A stretch of DNA of 32,000 nucleotides from Candidatus Nitrospira inopinata (GCF_001458695.1 NZ_LN885086.1:720001-752000), one strand, 5' to 3'. Shown: positions 2,567-15,554, counted from the stretch's first letter. The notes: generated from the sequence alone by a model not told the origin. Made by a program: numbers and translations.

Positions 2567-5500
2567 TCACAACATTTTTTGAAGCCCGTGCAACGCCGCA
2601 CGAACGTCGTTCATGGAGCGCTGACGTGTCGAATGCTGCTCCTCAACATCGAGACAAGTTATCGTAAATTGTGCAAGCTTTGTAATGAGGTCATCAGTGG
2701 CCACTACGCGAATGTCGCGGGCGCGAGCCGAGGCCATCAGATGCCGGTCAAAGGAGGTGTTCGTGATTAAGAAACACTCGCGCGGACGATTGCGAAGCGA
2801 TGCAGGGAGAATGTTATGCACGTAATATTCAACCCCGTTGACGAAGTGATCCACAACCTCGCTCGTGAGAGAGGATCCGACAGCCGAATGTTTGCATTCA
2901 ATAAGGGTTACTGCCCGATGTGACACAGCAATAACGTCTACTCCTCGGTCCCCGCTAACTGGTGTAAGGACAACCTTTAATCCTTCTTGTACAAAAAGTC
3001 TTGCGACCAGGGCTTCGAACATTTCTGGCGTCATGAGCTGGAGGTCTTCCTTATTCCGAATAGGCCGCACCTTCCCAGAAGACTGCGGACGCTCCTGCCG
3101 AAGGTGTTCGAATAATTCCGTTTCTAAGTTTTCCTCGGATGGTAATGGAATCAGAAAATCGCGAGCCTCCTGCTCCTTGGTTACCAACAGTTGATGGAGG
3201 CATTGGTCAAACGTGCGAAACTCACCCCGCGGGTCGCGCTCGATGGGCAAGTAGACATGGACGTCTCGTTCTTGTCCGATGCGGTAAACTCGGTCAGTTG
3301 CCTGCGCTTCTCTCGCAGGATTCCACCATCGGCCATAGTGGATAACATGGTTAGCTGCAGTGATCGTTAGGCCTACGCCGGCAACATCAGGCGAGAGGAT
3401 CAAGACATTGAAACCGGGGAGTGATTCAAAGTCTTTGATCCGATTCGTCCGATCTTTGACGATGTAGCGACGGCCGCTGATTGGTGACCCATTTATCACA
3501 CCGACGGCGAGCTTAAACTCGTGTTCGAACACAAGTTTGAGGATGTCTTGCATGGGACGAGACCGGGTGAAGATAATTGCCTTCTCACCTTGTTGACGGA
3601 TCACGTGTAGCGTTTCGACAACTTTCTTTAGCTTTGGAGACGATTGGAGATAACAAAGCGGGTCCTGTAGTTCCAAGCGCCTGGTTGCATCCAGTAGGAA
3701 AGGGTGCTGTGACAGTTTCGTTAGCCGATCAAGTAGTGCAAAGCGGTGCTCCTCGGTGCCGGGGTTCCGCATCCGAGCCAGGCACTCAAGGTGTAAGAGA
3801 CGCTGCTCAGGTGTAAGGTCTGTTTCGAGTATATGGGGCGGATGCTTGACCGGCAAACCCGACAGGAGTTTCTTCTCACGTCGGAGCAAGAACGCATCCG
3901 ACTTTCTATAACGCAGGCGGTCCCGCAGCGCCTGTAGGTGCTGCAGGCGCTCATCCAATGTGCCGGCCATGGCCGGCTCCTCATAGGCCTTTACGAACTC
4001 GCGGTAGCTCCCAAGCAACACACCTGGTTGCACAAAATCCATGATGTTCCAAATGTCCGAAAGTCTGTTCTCGACAGGTGTGCCGGTGAGGGCGATGCGA
4101 AATTTTGGATATAGAGCTTTGACAGCATGAGAAACACCGGTCGAACGGTCCTTGAACTCTTGCGCTTCATCGCTGATAACCATGCGCCAACGAATACGGG
4201 CGAGAGAGTATTGATAGTTTCGCACCGTCTCGTAATTGGTGAGCACCACACGATGGGCTTGGATTCGGTCAAGATCTAGAACTGAGGTCTGAGCCTGGGC
4301 CTCACGAAGAGTATTGGTGACACAACGAAACTGACTCAGTTTGGCACCATGAAGTACCAGCAGGGGCTCGAAAATTTCGCCACGGTTCGTGAAGTACCGG
4401 CGCATCTCCTCCTCCCATGTGGGAAGCAGCATCAGAGGCGCAACGATCAGGACAGGACCATGCCCGGAAGACAGGCCAACATCCGTGGGCGGAGCAGACT
4501 CTAGGTGTGCAGCGACGAAGGCAAGTACCTGGAGCGTCTTACCAAGGCCCATCTCGTCAGCCAGTAGCCCGCCGCGACGAATGGGGCTGTGACGGTACAA
4601 ATGTTGAAGCCATCCGATGCCTTCAACTTGATGGGGCATCAACCTGTCACAACGGATAAGGCTCTTGGGTAACTCAGGCACGAGTGACCCAGGGATCGAC
4701 TGTGCTGCCTCGTCGTACTCGAGAACTTCCTCATTGGCATAAATGAGGAGCTTCGCTGTGTCTGGCGATTCTTGCTTTTGGCGATTATTCTGTCGATCAA
4801 ATCGTTTAACGAGACTTGTAAGCGCACGGACAAGGGAATCAGTAACAGGCACACTTGCGTTCTTAAATTGGACAAAGTTCTCGCCGGCTGCATGGGCTGC
4901 GCCAACTTGTTCCGCAAAATTGAGAAGTTCATCGCGTGATTCAAACTGCACTTGCTGGGACTCACCATCGGCAAACTCATAGGCGAGCCCTACCTCAAAC
5001 ACTTCCTCCTGATTGAAAAGACGACGCCCACCTTTTCGCACATATGGAGAAACTCGTGCTGGGTACTTGCCGATTCCACGGACACGTGGGCCGTAGAGTG
5101 AGAGATCAATAAGATCGAGGTCACATACGCTCTCGAAACGCGAAGCAGGATTGCTGAGGATTGCGAGTTTCTCTTCGCCTCCTACATGTCGAATCTTGTG
5201 CATGACCTTAAGGGCTTCCTGGAGGTCTCCATGGAGAACCACGCGAACCCGGCCTCCATCATCGGACGGCAAGGCGTAGACTGAATCCACATCACTTAGC
5301 TGAAAGAAGACCTTCTTGAAAGCATCTCGTGGGACTCCGTCGAACGAGGGGAATAGGCTTATGCGACCATCCTCATCGAAGTCCACATCAAGGGACACTT
5401 TGGACGGAACCACGACATGAGTTGTAGTTAACAATGGGTCAGCTTCAGCATCCGATTCGTCGATCAGAGTCTTGATCGCTGCGAATTCTTTGAGGCTAGC

Positions 5501-8172: not shown

Positions 8173-9995
8173 TCAATACGCTTGACTAGCTTTTCAAGAG
8201 GTCCAGTGACCTGTTGAAGCCCATCGCGTACCATATCGCTACTGGCCTTTAACTCTTGCGCCGCCTGAGAAAATGATTCATCAAATCGCGTGAGTTGTTG
8301 TTCTGTATACTCTTGAACCACCGACGAATACCGTTCCATGCTATGGGTGAGTTCCGTAAGCACGTTGCCGAGTCCTGTCTCAACAGTATGGAACACAGTT
8401 TGGAACTGTTTGAGGGTTTCTGTCTGAACAGCGTGGATCTCTGCGAAGCGGGTCAGCTGTTGGGCTAACCGCTCGGCGTTCTGGCCTGCTTGCTCCTGAA
8501 GCTGCCGCATTTCCTGCACAGTAGCTGCGAACGAACGTTGGCCCTCCAGGAGCGTATAAGCTGCCTGTTCGACTTGTTTGAGAGCCTGTTGGCCTTCAGT
8601 TACCATGGCGCGGAACGACTCCAAAGCTTCGTTGAGGACAGATTTAGTCTGCGCAAGCTGTTGGCTGGCTGATCGATGCTCATCAAGTGCAGCCATGAGG
8701 TTCATGGCACCCTGCTCGGTCCATTTAGCCGTTCGCTGAAGTACGATATCGACAGTCTTGGAGAGATGGGCTTGTGAGTGTTCCTGTGCCTCGCGGATTG
8801 TCGTTGTTACAGATGCCAAGAGTTCATGGGCTCGACGTTCATGTTCAGATCCCACATTCTCCAGTCGAGCAAGCACGGACCCCACGGTTTCTCGCAATTG
8901 TCCTATCTGGTCACTCACGGCTCGATTTTGGGCCGCCATGGAATCGTCCAAACGTTGGATGAACGTGGCTAAGCCAACTCGGCTTTCTTCGCCTGCTCGG
9001 TTAAGCTCCTCCATCCGATTACTAGCAGAAGCGAGGACCGTTTGCAGTTCGGTAAACTGTGTCTTGGTCGTCCCTTCAAGACCTTTCAGAAATTGAGCGA
9101 TAAGCTCCTTAATGGCATCGTTATTGTCTTGGCGCTGTTGGGTGGCCAAGCGCTCCACAACCTCCACCATGCGGCGAAGAGTTGGGCCGAGGCTTTCAGA
9201 AATCCCTTCTTTCAGGCGGGTTGAAAGATCAACCCCAAAATGACGAAACGCCGTGGTCTGCTCTGCGAGATTTTGATGCATGTCTTCGAGAATGTGTTCG
9301 CTCGTCCTGCGACTGAGTAGCCTGTTAAGGGCATGGGTGAATCGATAGTAACTATTACTTAGGCCATGGACCAGCGGTTTCTCAAGTAAGAGGTAAACGG
9401 TCGCACAAGATAACGCTACGATGGAGGTGAGGAACTTTCCTGCTAATCCGTTGATAAGGCCAGAAATTCCCTCAATGCGAGAGGATTCTTCATCGATGTT
9501 GACTTGCAATAGTCCTGCGAAAATAGCTAAAAAAGTTAATAATAAGCCGACACCTGTCACGATTCCAGGAAAGCTGGAGTAGAAGAACAAATTGATACGT
9601 TGATTGATCAGATTGTCTTCAGTAAAAAACTCCTCTGCTGGACGGGTATTATAAATCTTGCCCGGTGAGTCTTTAACAAGTACTGTCTCTCGAAACTCTT
9701 CCCATGCCTGGGCGAGCGGCTCAACTTTACCGAAAAGACCGTCGAGACGGTTAAGCCCTTCTGCATCCAGCACAGAATGCTGATGCCGGAGCTTTTGGAG
9801 TTCTGTGGCGACCACTGTAAGAGGTTGCCTGACCATCCACACTTTCACTACCATCCACGTAAGCACAGCGAGCGTGACCACAATGATGCCCGCTGAGCCG
9901 ACCCAACTGAGGCCAGGAGCAGTTACAAGCCCTATGGGATTAGCATCAGTGAAGGGATGAAGAAGTAAATCAACCATTGTGCTCATGGCTGGCAT
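8169..9995 (-). CDS. zorA: MotA/ExbB-like ion-channel membrane protein with a long C-terminal helical tail (ZorA-like)
   Basis: 608 aa. Three hydrophobic segments lie at about aa 29-55, 135-163 and 178-205. The MotA/ExbB-type core reads FPGIVTGVGLLLTFLAIFAGLL...GLAGKFLTSIVALSCATVYLLLE. About 400 aa of Q/E/L/A/R-rich, proline-poor sequence follows, suggesting a coiled coil or long helix. In-frame ATGs occur at 9995, 9986 and 9977. The one at 9986 forms an ATGA overlap with the upstream ORF stop and has GGAG 10 nt upstream. Confidence 0.8.
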   Translation of the reverse strand: MPAMSTMVDLLLHPFTDANPIGLVTAPGLSWVGSAGIIVVTLAVLTWMVVKVWMVRQPLTVVATELQKLRHQHSVLDAEGLNRLDGLFGKVEPLAQAWEEFRETVLVKDSPGKIYNTRPAEEFFTEDNLINQRINLFFYSSFPGIVTGVGLLLTFLAIFAGLLQVNIDEESSRIEGISGLINGLAGKFLTSIVALSCATVYLLLEKPLVHGLSNSYYRFTHALNRLLSRRTSEHILEDMHQNLAEQTTAFRHFGVDLSTRLKEGISESLGPTLRRMVEVVERLATQQRQDNNDAIKELIAQFLKGLEGTTKTQFTELQTVLASASNRMEELNRAGEESRVGLATFIQRLDDSMAAQNRAVSDQIGQLRETVGSVLARLENVGSEHERRAHELLASVTTTIREAQEHSQAHLSKTVDIVLQRTAKWTEQGAMNLMAALDEHRSASQQLAQTKSVLNEALESFRAMVTEGQQALKQVEQAAYTLLEGQRSFAATVQEMRQLQEQAGQNAERLAQQLTRFAEIHAVQTETLKQFQTVFHTVETGLGNVLTELTHSMERYSSVVQEYTEQQLTRFDESFSQAAQELKASSDMVRDGLQQVTGPLEKLVKRIE

Positions 9996-10879
9996 GCTCC
10001 AGTGGTGATCGGTCTCCGAGTCGAGAGGAATGCCTGAGTTACAAGATGACTTTTCATGCGCCCTAACGTCATTGTTTTGCCTTTAATTTTGACTGCGGCC
10101 GTTTGAAACTCGAATAGCCGCTTGCCAAAGTCTCGTGGTATTCGAAATTCGGAAAGCCCCTCCCGTGCCTCTTGCGAAAGATGGTACGCCATCTTGATAT
10201 AGATATGGTGCGGAGGCACGAGTTCTTCCCGAGCCCAGCTCTCTTCGATAATACGGACGAGTTCTTCGGAAATATCCACACACCACCGATCCGTCCACCG
10301 ATCTTCAAACCACCGGGCCAACTTCTGGCACGCATCGTGATCCAGGACATCCACGTTCAACTCGCCCTGCTCGGACAAGCCTGCAAGCGTCAGATTGCTG
10401 CTGCCTAAATAGCCAACGATTGGGTTGATAGGATCAGGCCGGAAGAGCAAGTACAGCTTGGCGTGCAGCGAATGCCGGAGGAACAGTTTGACGATAACCT
10501 TCTTGGATTTGATTTGTTCTGCCAGCTTGCGGAGCCCCGCTTCGTCTTCGTTGGTTGGAATGCCGACGCTCAATTGCTCGCGGAACTCTTCGGCGAGCTT
10601 CTTTTTGAGGTGAATTGTCGTCTGGTTGTCTATCTCACCATCTCGGCTTATCAGGCTCAACGCTTTGCGCAATTCATCGTGCGGCAACCGCTGCATACCG
10701 ACCAATAGGCGGCAACAGTGCCCATCTCCTCCAGACCACTTCTCAATATGCGAGTCGAGTTGCTTCCATCCTCGAAGGTTGAAATACCCGACGCAAAAGT
10801 CAGCGCGGTCGGCAACCTGCATGGTTTCGCGGAGCGCGGGAAGGAGGGATTGTTCGATGTTATCAAAGATGCGGGGCAT
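9983..10879 (-). CDS. PLD-family (single HKD motif) nuclease-domain protein, probably the N-terminal remnant of a PLD-helicase fusion
   Basis: 298 aa. The HKD motif is LHAKLYLLFRPDPINPIVGYLGSSNLTLAGL (nt about 10394-10465). The N-terminus MPRIFDNIEQSLLPAL...ADFCVGYFNLRGW and the segment RLFEFQTAAVKI resemble, from memory, the first 260 aa or so of roughly 1000 aa PLD + SF2 helicase proteins. After about aa 265 the sequence becomes unrelated (KGKTMTLGRMKSH...) and stops at 9983, before any Walker A motif. It could be a pseudogene fragment or a functional short PLD nuclease. Confidence 0.6.
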   Translation of the reverse strand: MPRIFDNIEQSLLPALRETMQVADRADFCVGYFNLRGWKQLDSHIEKWSGGDGHCCRLLVGMQRLPHDELRKALSLISRDGEIDNQTTIHLKKKLAEEFREQLSVGIPTNEDEAGLRKLAEQIKSKKVIVKLFLRHSLHAKLYLLFRPDPINPIVGYLGSSNLTLAGLSEQGELNVDVLDHDACQKLARWFEDRWTDRWCVDISEELVRIIEESWAREELVPPHHIYIKMAYHLSQEAREGLSEFRIPRDFGKRLFEFQTAAVKIKGKTMTLGRMKSHLVTQAFLSTRRPITTGACQP

Positions 10880-11486
10880 AGCTGTACTGGCGTGCTTATT
10901 CGTGTGAAGCGCCGATGCAGAATGCCATTTTCTACGATATAAATCAATAATTTAGATGATCATTGGGGGCGATCTCGGTAGGATTAGGATATTGAGGTGG
11001 CAGTGCAGGTGACGGCGGTGATGCACCGGACGTTATGAATGCAAAGAGGGAAATAAGAAATCGAGGGGTCTTTTCTTGACAGAGAATGGACGTGGTTTCG
11101 GTCACAGATGCTTATGCCCCGTCGTCCGCGCCTCACTGCCGGAGATTTTGCCCGTCCTATGCTCAATCGCTGTATGGGTGCTTGCCGTTATTTGGACGAA
11201 GACAAGGGATCGGAATCAGTATTGGGCGCGTAAACGTTCCAGCACAGAGCGGAATGACTGCCAACCTCTTTAGTTCTCCGCAGATCGTCGTGGGACGATA
11301 TGCGAGCGCTTCCCAAAAGTGTCAGCGAAACAGCAGACCATCAACCTTTTAAGAGCACAGCAAGGAAAGGAGCCGGACGATTCGAACCGATGCCAAGGTG
11401 AAGCTGAGGTGCGGGAAATCCGCCTCCACACACACTTACTTCATTGACTTGTGATCTTTGGGGGAATGTTTCCAACTTGTTGTTTT

Positions 11487-11562
<76 letters not shown>

Positions 11563-11617
11563 ACCGGGTGTGTAGCTTCTTTCTGAGGCACGACTGGAGA
11601 CCTCGCCCACCTGCTGG

Positions 11618-11694
11618 TGGTGCGCCTGACAGGATTTGAACCTGTGGCCCTCAGCTCCGGAGGCTGATGCTCTATCCAGCTGAGCTACAGGCGC
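11618..11694 (-). tRNA. tRNA-Arg (anticodon CCG), CCA encoded
   Basis: The reverse complement reads GCGCCTGTAGCTCAGCTGGATAGAGCATCAGCCTCCGGAGCTGAGGGCCACAGGTTCAAATCCTGTCAGGCGCACCA. It has an acceptor stem GCGCCTG/CAGGCGC, an anticodon stem TCAGC/GCTGA with loop CTCCGGA, and a T-arm ACAGG-TTCAAAT-CCTGT. Confidence 0.93.
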
Positions 11695-11741
11695 TCCCGT
11701 CAGCAAGGTACGTCACCTTAGCACGGCCGGAAAGCCGCTGT

Positions 11742-12374
11742 CTAGGTGCCGGTCACCTCCTCACCTTCCGCCTTATCAGGCAAAAAAGCATAGGGGAGAA
11801 AGAGTTCCTCACCCTGTGCCAAATCCAGGTTGTGTAATTGAGCAAGATGCTCGGCTTCTTCGTTGATCAGTCGATCTTCTTCTTCACGAAAGGATCGAGG
11901 CAGCCGAACGAGCGGAATGGCCGTTTGAATCGCGCAGGCTCCTTCGACGATTTCTCCCGTGTCACGTGGAATGCCCATCGATCGGCAGGTGAGCGGTCGA
12001 AAGGCATAGATGCCACAGCTTCCATCGGATTGGAGGGCCGGGCAATTCAGGTCGGCAAATCGCTCGGCCAGCGCATCAACGTCACCGTCCGCCCATTGAT
12101 CGATGAACCAGGTTCGCGCCAGTCGGGGGGCGGCTCGTTCCATCATTTTGACCTGCGCTCGCGCTCGCTGGAGAATGGTTCGGCGTTGCGTCGGTTGCAA
12201 GGTGCGGAGCCCTCGTTGGATTTCGTTCCAATCCAGTATGGTGACCGGGAAGATGCCCCGACAACAGTGCGAACATCCTTGAGCGCAGGGGATTTGATCA
12301 AGCAGAGCCGCTTTGGCTCGCTGAAACCAGAGGGACGTTTTTTCAAAAAGCCCGAACGACAAGCCTCCCCTCAT
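11742..12374 (-). CDS. YkgJ-family (CxxCxxCC) zinc/iron-chelating cysteine-cluster protein
   Basis: 210 aa, starting at the ATG at 12374. It contains the N-terminal cluster CAQGCSHCCRGIF and further Cys residues (NCPAL...GSCGIYAFRPLTCRS), typical of the UPF0153/YkgJ family. It starts 6 nt after the upstream gene's stop. Confidence 0.65.
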   Translation of the reverse strand: MRGGLSFGLFEKTSLWFQRAKAALLDQIPCAQGCSHCCRGIFPVTILDWNEIQRGLRTLQPTQRRTILQRARAQVKMMERAAPRLARTWFIDQWADGDVDALAERFADLNCPALQSDGSCGIYAFRPLTCRSMGIPRDTGEIVEGACAIQTAIPLVRLPRSFREEEDRLINEEAEHLAQLHNLDLAQGEELFLPYAFLPDKAEGEEVTGT

Positions 12375-14141: not shown

Positions 14142-14535
14142 TTTCGATGCTGTAGTTCTGCAGCAAAGGGCTTAGCGTGAGGAAATTTTCATATCCCAAC
14201 CCAGGCGCGTCTCATTATGCTCTATATGTTTTTGAACACGGCAGCGAAAAAACCGTTCGAATTCCTTCAATTTGCTCTGGCACTCTCTCCTGTCGACAGC
14301 ATGCTCGGACTTTTCTCATGACCATCATGATCACAGGACTTAGCGATAGTCGATTCTAGACTCATTCGCTCCACGGTTTTGTACAACCGGCCCTTCCGCG
14401 TCGTCTTCATTTCTTTTCCTCTCTGCTCCGTCGTAATGATTGCCGTGCCGCAAACTTTTTTTGATGAGCATTTTCATCAGGTGACAGTGCGGTATCGAAT
14501 ATGGTAGAAGGTTCATTCATTTTTGCACTCAGAAT

Positions 14536-14613
14536 GTCCCCATCGTCTAGCCTGGCCTAGGACATTGCCCTTTCAAGGCAGTAACACGGGTTCAAATCCC
14601 GTTGGGGACACCA
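14536..14613 (+). tRNA. tRNA-Glu (anticodon TTC), CCA encoded
   Basis: GTCCCCATCGTCTAGCCTGGCCTAGGACATTGCCCTTTCAAGGCAGTAACACGGGTTCAAATCCCGTTGGGGACACCA. It has an acceptor stem GTCCCCA/TGGGGAC, an anticodon loop CTTTCAA, and a T-arm ACGGG-TTCAAAT-CCCGT. Confidence 0.92.
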
Positions 14614-14664
14614 GCAAATTACCGCTTACGAAAACAAAGCAACAAAAAAGCACGCAAATAGCAA

Positions 14665-14698
14665 GGGGGCTGCACGGAAACCGTGCAGCCCCCTTTTT
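14665..14698. terminator. Strong GC hairpin plus T-tract (terminator after tRNA-Glu; also faces the 3' end of amoC)
   Basis: GGGGGCTGCACGG-AAA-CCGTGCAGCCCCC is a 13-bp perfect stem at 14665-14693, followed by TTTTT (14694-14698). On the opposite strand it lies 47 nt downstream of the amoC stop, where the trailing sequence is less T-rich. Confidence 0.7.
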
Positions 14699-14744
14699 CG
14701 AGTTAGCTTTTCCTCTTCAGAATGTCTTTTTAACTAACCTTAAC

Positions 14745-15554
14745 CTAGTAGCCTGCTTTGGCGTTGGGGTTGACCTGGCTGGGGAACGGATCCAGGATGC
14801 TCTTGGGCGCCCCGTTCCAAATCACATCCGCCAAGTTCGACATGCGGCTCACAATCTGCGCCGCCACGCCGCCGGCCGCCCCGAACAACCCGCACCAGCC
14901 CAACGTCACAAAGCCCCAATGCAACGGCGCCGCAAACAACTCGTCCACAAACCAAAACGCATGGCCCCACTCATTGAGCCCCACGTTCGGCAAAATGAAC
15001 ATCGGCCCCACCACCGCCGCCACCAACGGAAACGACGTCGCCTGGCTATACAACGGCAACCGCGTCTGCGCATACAGATAACTCGAGACCCCGCACGTAA
15101 TGTACAACGGGAACGTCCCGTAAAACGCCACAATGTGACTGGCCGTAAAACTCGTGTCCCGAATGATCACCTGATGCCACGCCGCATCCTGCTCCAACGT
15201 GTAGCTGCCCGCATAATAGACCCCCCACACGTAGCAGGCCAACCACCCCATCCAGTAAAAATACCGCTTCAACTCCGTCTTCGGATCCAAATTCGCCAAA
15301 TTCCGATCCCGCGTCACCCAAATCCACCCCACCGAAATCGCAAAAAATAACGCATTGGCCACAATGTTAAACCGCCATAACCCCATCCACACCGCGTCAA
15401 ACTCCGGCGTCATCGAGTCCAACCCGTGCGAATACCCAAACGTCCGCTGATACAACACCCAAAAAATCCCAATCGCCAACATCGCAAACCACCCAATCTT
15501 CCACGGCCGCGAATCATACCACTGCGAAATGTCATACCCCCGCTCTGCCGCCAT
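14745..15554 (-). CDS. amoC: ammonia/particulate-methane monooxygenase subunit C family protein (AmoC/PmoC)
   Basis: 269 aa polytopic membrane protein. It contains long stretches I recognise from AmoC: [64 protein letters not shown] and [30 protein letters not shown]. An AAGGAGGG SD lies 8 nt upstream of the ATG at 15554. No amoA or amoB is present in the window. Confidence 0.9.

Follow-up and report, generated by a model that had tools for sequence, protein, structure and literature searches.

On the minus strand of a 32,000-nucleotide (nt) stretch of DNA from Candidatus Nitrospira inopinata (NZ_LN885086.1:720001-752000; hereafter the window, numbered from its first letter), positions 2567 to 9986 are occupied by four tightly spaced open reading frames (ORFs), which an ORF scan combined with a base-by-base reading of the junctions places in the order zorA-zorB-zorC-zorD. 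Very likely, these genes form a type I Zorya anti-phage operon (zorABCD) that is intact and, as predicted from sequence, probably functional. zorA spans 8169-9986 (ATG at 9986; 605 amino acids, aa), zorB 7435-8169 (ATG at 8169, 244 aa; 245 aa from a GTG at 8172), zorC 6027-7409 (ATG at 7409, 460 aa) and zorD 2567-6022 (ATG at 6022, 1151 aa). The zorA stop codon (TGA, 8171-8169) overlaps either of the possible zorB starts; 25 nt separate the zorB stop (TGA, 7437-7435) from the zorC ATG, and 4 nt the zorC stop (TGA, 6029-6027) from the zorD ATG. The co-directional, tightly packed arrangement described in a first-pass annotation of this DNA is confirmed in its ORFs and in all three junction spacings. 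That annotation extended zorA to an in-frame ATG at 9995 (608 aa); the ATG at 9986 is the likelier start and is the one used in public assemblies, whose gene calls on identical DNA give a 605-aa ZorA and begin zorB at ATG 8169 (244 aa) and zorC at 7409. A longer zorC ORF, starting at 7598 (523 aa), would share 164 nt with zorB and is not used by gene callers. The list of four genes also missed a fifth co-directional ORF (9983-10879) that abuts the operon and is considered below.

Models of type I Zorya are the top matches in the PADLOC library of hidden Markov models (HMMs) for all four adjacent genes, which lie in canonical order on one strand: ZorA1 (expectation value, E, 1.5e-33; also 3.2e-32 over aa 24-595), ZorB1 (E 1.4e-32), ZorC1 (E 9.1e-18) and ZorD1 (E 1.2e-217, aa 47-1123, including the nuclease end). 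These matches, together with those of ZorA, ZorC and ZorD to the solved E. coli Zorya I chains and of ZorB to Shewanella and Sulfuricurvum chains, uphold the Zorya type I-like reading proposed initially. The proposal had itself acknowledged that the family is not undescribed, and rightly so, since the Zorya type has been known since 2018 and has dedicated HMMs and solved structures. ZorB also matches ZorB2 of type II (ZorABE) systems (E 1.8e-26) and ZorA weakly matches ZorA2, but the ZorA tail is long here, and the genes beside zorAB are zorC and zorD rather than the ZorE/HNH gene of type II or the ZorF/ZorG pair of type III.

ZorA has three hydrophobic segments resembling transmembrane (TM) helices (about 23-53, 137-165 and 183-201). 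Its core (aa ~21-228) is MotA-like, with three TM segments and the cytoplasmic beta-hairpin domain typical of ZorA, and residues 229-604 are predicted to be nearly all helical, giving a tail of ~377 aa. The earlier description of gene 1 as a MotA-type core with a very long helical tail is borne out by both the TM-like segments and the helix prediction. In an AlphaFold (AF2) model of the monomer, the core is built with a predicted local distance difference test score (pLDDT) of 62-89, and the tail is helical with low confidence, as would be expected of a pentameric coiled coil. The protein is covered by a newer Pfam family, PF28082 (ZorA-like_t1), in precomputed annotation and matches the E. 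coli ZorA chains 8qyk/8qyd among Protein Data Bank (PDB) sequences (E 1e-14 to 7.5e-13). When the sequences are aligned, E97 and E100 fall on the calcium-site residues E86 and E89 of E. coli ZorA, P140 on P136, and T151 and S188 on the ion-filter residues T147 and S184 (roles from PMC11946911). The TM3 filter motif (aa 185-188, nt ~9423-9434) reads FLTS, identical to that of Shewanella sp. ANA-3 ZorA, for which bound sodium has been reported (PMC11890865); it reads FLGS in E. coli, where the coupling ion has been assigned as the proton. Judging from this motif, the coupling ion of the N. inopinata system may be sodium rather than the proton.

ZorB consists of one TM segment (13-44) followed by an OmpA-type peptidoglycan-binding domain (Pfam OmpA, E 1e-7). 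The conserved aspartate lies within the sequence ITDLMTSL and is D22 or D21 depending on the start codon (D21 from the ATG), so that the MotB-type TM segment with its aspartate and the OmpA-like anchor attributed to gene 2 are all present. Residues N154, L157 and R161 are spaced like the peptidoglycan-binding residues N152, L155 and R159 of E. coli ZorB (roles from PMC11946911). Among PDB sequences, the ZorB query finds only the Sulfuricurvum and Shewanella ZorB chains (8vvi, E 8e-7; 8vvn, E 2e-4); the E. coli ZorB chain is not detected at E < 0.01. Pfam MotB_plug (PF13677) gives no match to ZorB, which is expected as ZorB has no MotB-like plug (PMC11946911).

The two downstream genes encode the predicted effectors. 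ZorC matches the Pfam family EH_Signature (PF15611) with an E-value of 2.2e-32, above the 27.5-bit cut-off, and the E. coli ZorC chain 8r68 with an E-value of 1.9e-5; in the latter match E383 is aligned with E. coli E400. Across 20 aligned orthologues, E383, W442, D317, R321 and W325 do not vary, and H434 is kept in most of them, with a one-column shift in three. The E/H signature that had been seen at the C-terminus of gene 3 corresponds to E383 and H434. The protein stops 18 residues past W442 and 26 past H434, and all 20 orthologues end 15-25 aa past W442; it thus comprises the EH core domain only, and the globular domain with which E. coli ZorC ends is missing.

ZorD combines a domain at its N-terminus with an SNF2-type ATPase and, at the C-terminus, a nuclease domain of the Mrr PD-(D/E)xK type. 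The ATPase core (nt 3173-4639, aa ~462-950, minus strand) contains GLGKT with K495, DEAQ with D618 and E619, and QATDR at 907; the Mrr_cat domain (nt 2684-3037, aa 996-1113, minus strand) contains D1029, E1042 and K1044. Pfam matches (SNF2-rel_dom, E 2.9e-44; Helicase_C, 1.5e-16; Mrr_cat, 5.7e-12) agree with these motifs and with the first-pass description of gene 4 as a complete SNF2 motif set joined to an Mrr-like nuclease core. Indeed, all residues singled out in that description, in ZorB as in ZorD, are there. The protein matches E. coli ZorD (8qy7, E 3.3e-98) over aa 297-962. The E. coli chain (1080 aa) stops 13 residues beyond this SNF2 match and has no Mrr domain; the Mrr part is kept in ~20 related loci. 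An Mrr-like domain in ZorD has already been noted in earlier work. The E. coli study places nuclease activity, dependent on DEAQ, in the Snf2 part at the C-terminus and makes no mention of Mrr (PMC11946911).

Set beside the E. coli type I system, the locus shares the order zorABCD, the 3-TM core, beta-hairpin cytoplasmic domain and long helical tail of ZorA, the aspartate and plug-less peptidoglycan-binding domain of ZorB, the EH network of ZorC, and the SNF2 core with DEAQ of ZorD. Similarity is low, however (ZorA, E ~1e-14; ZorC, ~2e-5), and the two systems differ in several respects: ZorA is 605 aa long with a tail of about 377, compared to 729 aa with a tail of about 500 in E. coli; the TM3 filter has T-S instead of G-S; ZorC has 460 aa instead of 560, lacking the C-terminal globular domain; and ZorD has an N-terminal region ~120 aa shorter and the extra Mrr nuclease at its C-terminus. 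The short ZorC and the Mrr-bearing ZorD both place the locus outside the E. coli-like subtype. The type I ZorAB of Shewanella sp. ANA-3 (PDB 8vvn; PMC11890865) belongs to the same 5:2 motor family and has the FLTS motif and the ZorB aspartate; it differs in that the motor alone was solved, in the length of ZorA (696 aa), and in being only weakly matched (ZorA, E 1e-12; ZorB, 2e-4).

Closer counterparts were found by scanning species-representative genomes with a ZorA alignment, which yielded 80 loci. About 25 of these have the four genes closely packed in the order zorA-zorB-zorC-zorD; their sources include Acidobacteriota, Binataceae, Deltaproteobacteria, Chlorobi, Verrucomicrobia and Gemmatimonas. 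Protein sizes in this set are 590-700 aa for ZorA, 217-257 for ZorB, ~440-460 for ZorC and ~1125-1196 for ZorD, the last usually with an Mrr domain. The N. inopinata locus is thus typical of an environmental Zorya I clade that is widespread and characterized by a short ZorC and a ZorD with Mrr (PADLOC models PDLC00631, PDLC00622 and others; loci L028-L076), with which it shares genes, order, sizes and the Mrr domain, although identity outside Nitrospira is 25-43%. To our knowledge, no member of this clade has been studied experimentally.

None of the four ORFs is truncated, and their catalytic residues are preserved. The ratio of non-synonymous to synonymous substitution rates (dN/dS) of the zor genes is 0.20-0.26 in the comparison with a relative whose ZorA is 92% identical, and 0.09-0.11 with a 77% relative; the genes are under purifying selection between Nitrospira lineages (dN/dS 0.09-0.26). 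ZorA is 100% identical to a deposited Candidatus Nitrospira inopinata protein, and an identical ZorD is found on 23 contigs from independent samples, including GCA_001458755.1.

A number of points weigh against this assignment. The assignment is a prediction from sequence, and for the system type it draws on matches to the individual models of the PADLOC HMM library. Scans for promoter and terminator consensus sequences over 1800-11800 returned no more signals than did shuffled sequence. The ZorC C-terminal domain absent here, along with the linker, is required in E. coli for DNA binding and defence (PMC11946911). Pfam MotA_ExbB (PF01618) gives no match to ZorA. Of the Pfam set anticipated by the first-pass annotation, EH_Signature, SNF2, Helicase_C, Mrr_cat and OmpA were found and MotA_ExbB and MotB_plug were not; of the two families on whose joint absence it would have abandoned the Zorya reading, EH_Signature gives a strong match and only MotA_ExbB is missing, its place being taken by ZorA-specific models. 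Finally, scores with the NCBIfam Zorya models lie well below the curated cut-offs (88 vs 190, 24 vs 400, 34 vs 490 and 451 vs 1500 bits). These models are top for ZorA, ZorC and ZorD and rank fourth to fifth, at 24-27 bits, for ZorB. The models are narrow, mostly of the equivalog class, and derive from enterobacterial-type sequences, so that the low scores reflect distance from the reference systems and not exclusion from the Zorya family. The low scores also account for the names under which the genes were deposited (hypothetical, or MotA/TolQ/ExbB-like).

If the homologous systems of E. coli and Shewanella are a guide, ZorA and ZorB would assemble into an inner-membrane, ion-driven rotary complex of 5:2 stoichiometry (ZorA5B2), with ZorB as the peptidoglycan anchor. 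Perturbation of the envelope at phage entry would activate ZorAB, and the signal would pass along the long coiled-coil tail of ZorA, roughly 50-55 nm in length if its ~377 aa form one continuous coiled coil. ZorC, binding DNA through its EH core, and ZorD would then be recruited and incoming DNA degraded locally. In this clade, DNA would most likely be cut by the Mrr-type PD-(D/E)xK domain at the C-terminus of ZorD, with the SNF2 part as its motor, and ZorC would presumably act without the C-terminal globular domain that its E. coli counterpart needs.

The fifth ORF (9983-10879, minus strand) encodes an HKD/PLD-domain protein of 298 aa (Pfam PLDc_2, RE_NgoFVII), and its TGA stop overlaps the zorA start as ATGA at 9986-9983. 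Residues 1-265 are 70-83% identical to the N-terminus of proteins combining a PLD/HKD domain with an SNF2 helicase; among the full-length helicase-nucleases (such as P0243 and P0251), a 1135-aa protein with PLD, SNF2 and Helicase_C parts is 71% identical over aa 1-265. The ORF corresponds to the first quarter of such a protein alone. Similarity ends right after the helicase Q motif, FEFQTAAVKI, homologue matches stopping at aa 266-271. In tblastn searches with full-length HKD-Snf2 proteins, homology stops at nt 10085 and the missing ~870 residues, comprising the helicase and C-terminal parts, are nowhere in the window. Full-length relatives measure 1085-1176 aa, carry PLDc_2, SNF2/ResIII and Helicase_C, and have the candidate C3a139 'HKD+Snf2' as best PADLOC model. 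The HxK and GSSN motifs are intact in the fragment. The same junction, at the same site and followed by Zorya, recurs in four Nitrospira relatives (L020, L021, L025 and L026). Between three lineages that share it, dN/dS is 0.06-0.10 at dS 0.39-0.78, lower than for the zor genes; the fragment is therefore being maintained as a gene rather than decaying as a pseudogene. These findings suggest that the fifth ORF is a stand-alone nuclease gene born by truncation. AlphaFold, given a shallow alignment of 12 sequences, produced no usable model of the fragment (mean pLDDT 37.7).

Some observations concern the HKD-Snf2 family at large. That the family might have a recurrent breakpoint was considered, as the best 120 homologues are all <=520 aa; varied fragment ends, differing insertions and the common occurrence of full-length members of ~1100 aa ruled this out. 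In complete genomes, relatives of the gene are often interrupted, once by an Endonuclease_1 gene with ORFs of unknown function and once by insertion sequence (IS) elements (L023 8001-15425; L024 8001-8873). A MmeI/Eco57I-type methyltransferase lies downstream of the HKD-Snf2 relative in L023, which suggests that the family, when intact, is part of a two-gene system resembling restriction.

The position of the fifth ORF invites the view that the operon is a five-gene variant, in which the HKD/PLD fragment would be co-transcribed and translationally coupled with zorA and act as an accessory Zorya nuclease. The shared orientation and the ATGA overlap fit this view, as do the intact motifs, the low dN/dS and the recurrence of the fragment upstream of Zorya in the four relatives just mentioned. 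The two genes can be found apart, however. The fragment is absent from all of the approximately 25 distant clade loci and from L019, a locus with a 77%-identical Zorya whose homology spans window positions 9974-2592 only. In L027, it is decayed (an in-frame stop leaves aa 1-99), whereas the part of zorA present on that contig (aa 1-531) is intact. The copy in L026 terminates before reaching zorA, which makes the overlap a lineage-specific trait. Conversely, L007-L010 have the fragment, cut at the same junction, beside mazEF but no Zorya; all that is left there of the operon is 116 nt from the 3′ end of zorD, matching window positions 2556-2671. On the metagenome contigs L007 (10001-11875) and L008 (4023-5891), a mazE or pemK-mazE toxin-antitoxin module lies between the truncated PLD gene and this remnant, which is 80-81% identical; in this lineage, the zorABCD block was replaced and both its flanks were left. 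As the fifth ORF is absent, decayed or Zorya-free in other loci, we treat it as a neighbour: it is probably a relic-derived gene and not a Zorya component, and the five-gene variant appears unlikely.

The replacement also shows that Zorya loss does occur in this lineage, and so bears on whether the N. inopinata operon might itself be an inactive relic, present but no longer functional in its host. The truncated defence gene alongside and the negative promoter scan could be read in the same way. Set against this are four full-length ORFs with intact catalytic residues, the dN/dS values of 0.09-0.26 and the identical ZorD on 23 contigs; an inactive operon is, in our judgement, very improbable. 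One may also ask whether ZorAB is a non-defence ion-driven stator of the MotAB, ExbBD, TolQR or AglRS kind, powering motility or envelope functions, with the helicase gene unrelated to it. ZorA and ZorB are distantly homologous to MotAB, ZorB has additional weak matches to MotS and OmpA-family models, and many Nitrospira hold a syntenic short ZorAB-like pair in which tblastn finds no ZorC or ZorD. Yet the best matches of all four genes are Zorya-specific, the two stator families of Pfam (PF01618 and PF13677) give no match, and ZorC and ZorD always come next, in the same order, in related loci. Flagellar, Tol and Ton genes are found neither in the window, as the first-pass annotation had stated, nor in the inspected relatives, and the same holds for the motility or Tol-Pal setting that it would have counted against Zorya if constant around orthologous loci; neighbours were inspected in some relatives, the approximately 25 clade loci being checked for gene order and size alone. 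We regard a stator function as exceedingly improbable and retain the type I Zorya operon as the reading of the locus.

The short ZorAB-like pair occurs in dozens of Nitrospira genomes (L065-L104), with a ZorA-like protein of ~410-427 aa that has a short tail. An example is found in Nitrospira sp. UBC2 (CP092081; L082 8938-10975), where the pair matches PADLOC ZorA1 (2e-21) and ZorB1 (6e-39); this one locus was scanned, and showed housekeeping neighbours and no effector near the pair. In 17 species-level genomes the gene order around it is the same (PTPS, CBS, the pair, FGE-sulfatase, AhpC, BipA, PBP1), and the pair looks like a vertically inherited orphan.

The operon sits in a tract of low GC content (0.49-0.55, vs ~0.58-0.62 in most of the remaining window), between genes for tRNA-Lys and tRNA-Arg (11487-11694) on one side and a DUF2459 gene and metK on the other. 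The low GC content and the tRNA-Lys/Arg neighbourhood fit horizontal acquisition. Comparison of the tRNA-Lys end with the far side of the island revealed only short att-like direct repeats at chance level, and no integrase ORF was seen. Eight flanking ORFs were also compared with the PADLOC models and yielded no additional defence genes, and the remainder of the window is housekeeping in character (amoC, lysC, apgM, thrC, hom, an aminotransferase gene, nnr, tsaE, mutS, an M16 peptidase gene and pnp). The lone amoC copy (14523-15554, 269 aa, Pfam AmoC 2e-105) lies beside a tRNA-Glu gene at the edge of the low-GC tract, with no amoA or amoB nearby; there, at 15-16 kb, the GC skew reaches a strongly negative value (-0.29). 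Two enzymes encoded in the window are of archaeal type, an S-adenosylmethionine synthetase (PF01941, 42-1058, plus strand) and a cofactor-independent phosphoglycerate mutase (PF10143, 17201-18409, minus strand). Downstream of zorD, public assemblies call a 187-aa ORF at 1862-2425 (minus strand) that has no family match, is of low complexity (rich in Ser, Arg and Cys) and runs into the end of the DUF2459 gene; the call is probably spurious. The equivalent spacer in L020 and L021 holds two additional ORFs of unknown function (227 and 163 aa).

Taken by itself, this is an ordinary locus of a known system and raises no new question. The gain for annotation is a defence system in the reference comammox nitrifier, in genes deposited as hypothetical or MotA/TolQ/ExbB-like. 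Work on the unstudied clade to which it belongs, with its short ZorC, its ZorD-Mrr and possibly a sodium-type filter, could reveal how much of the E. coli mechanism holds generally.

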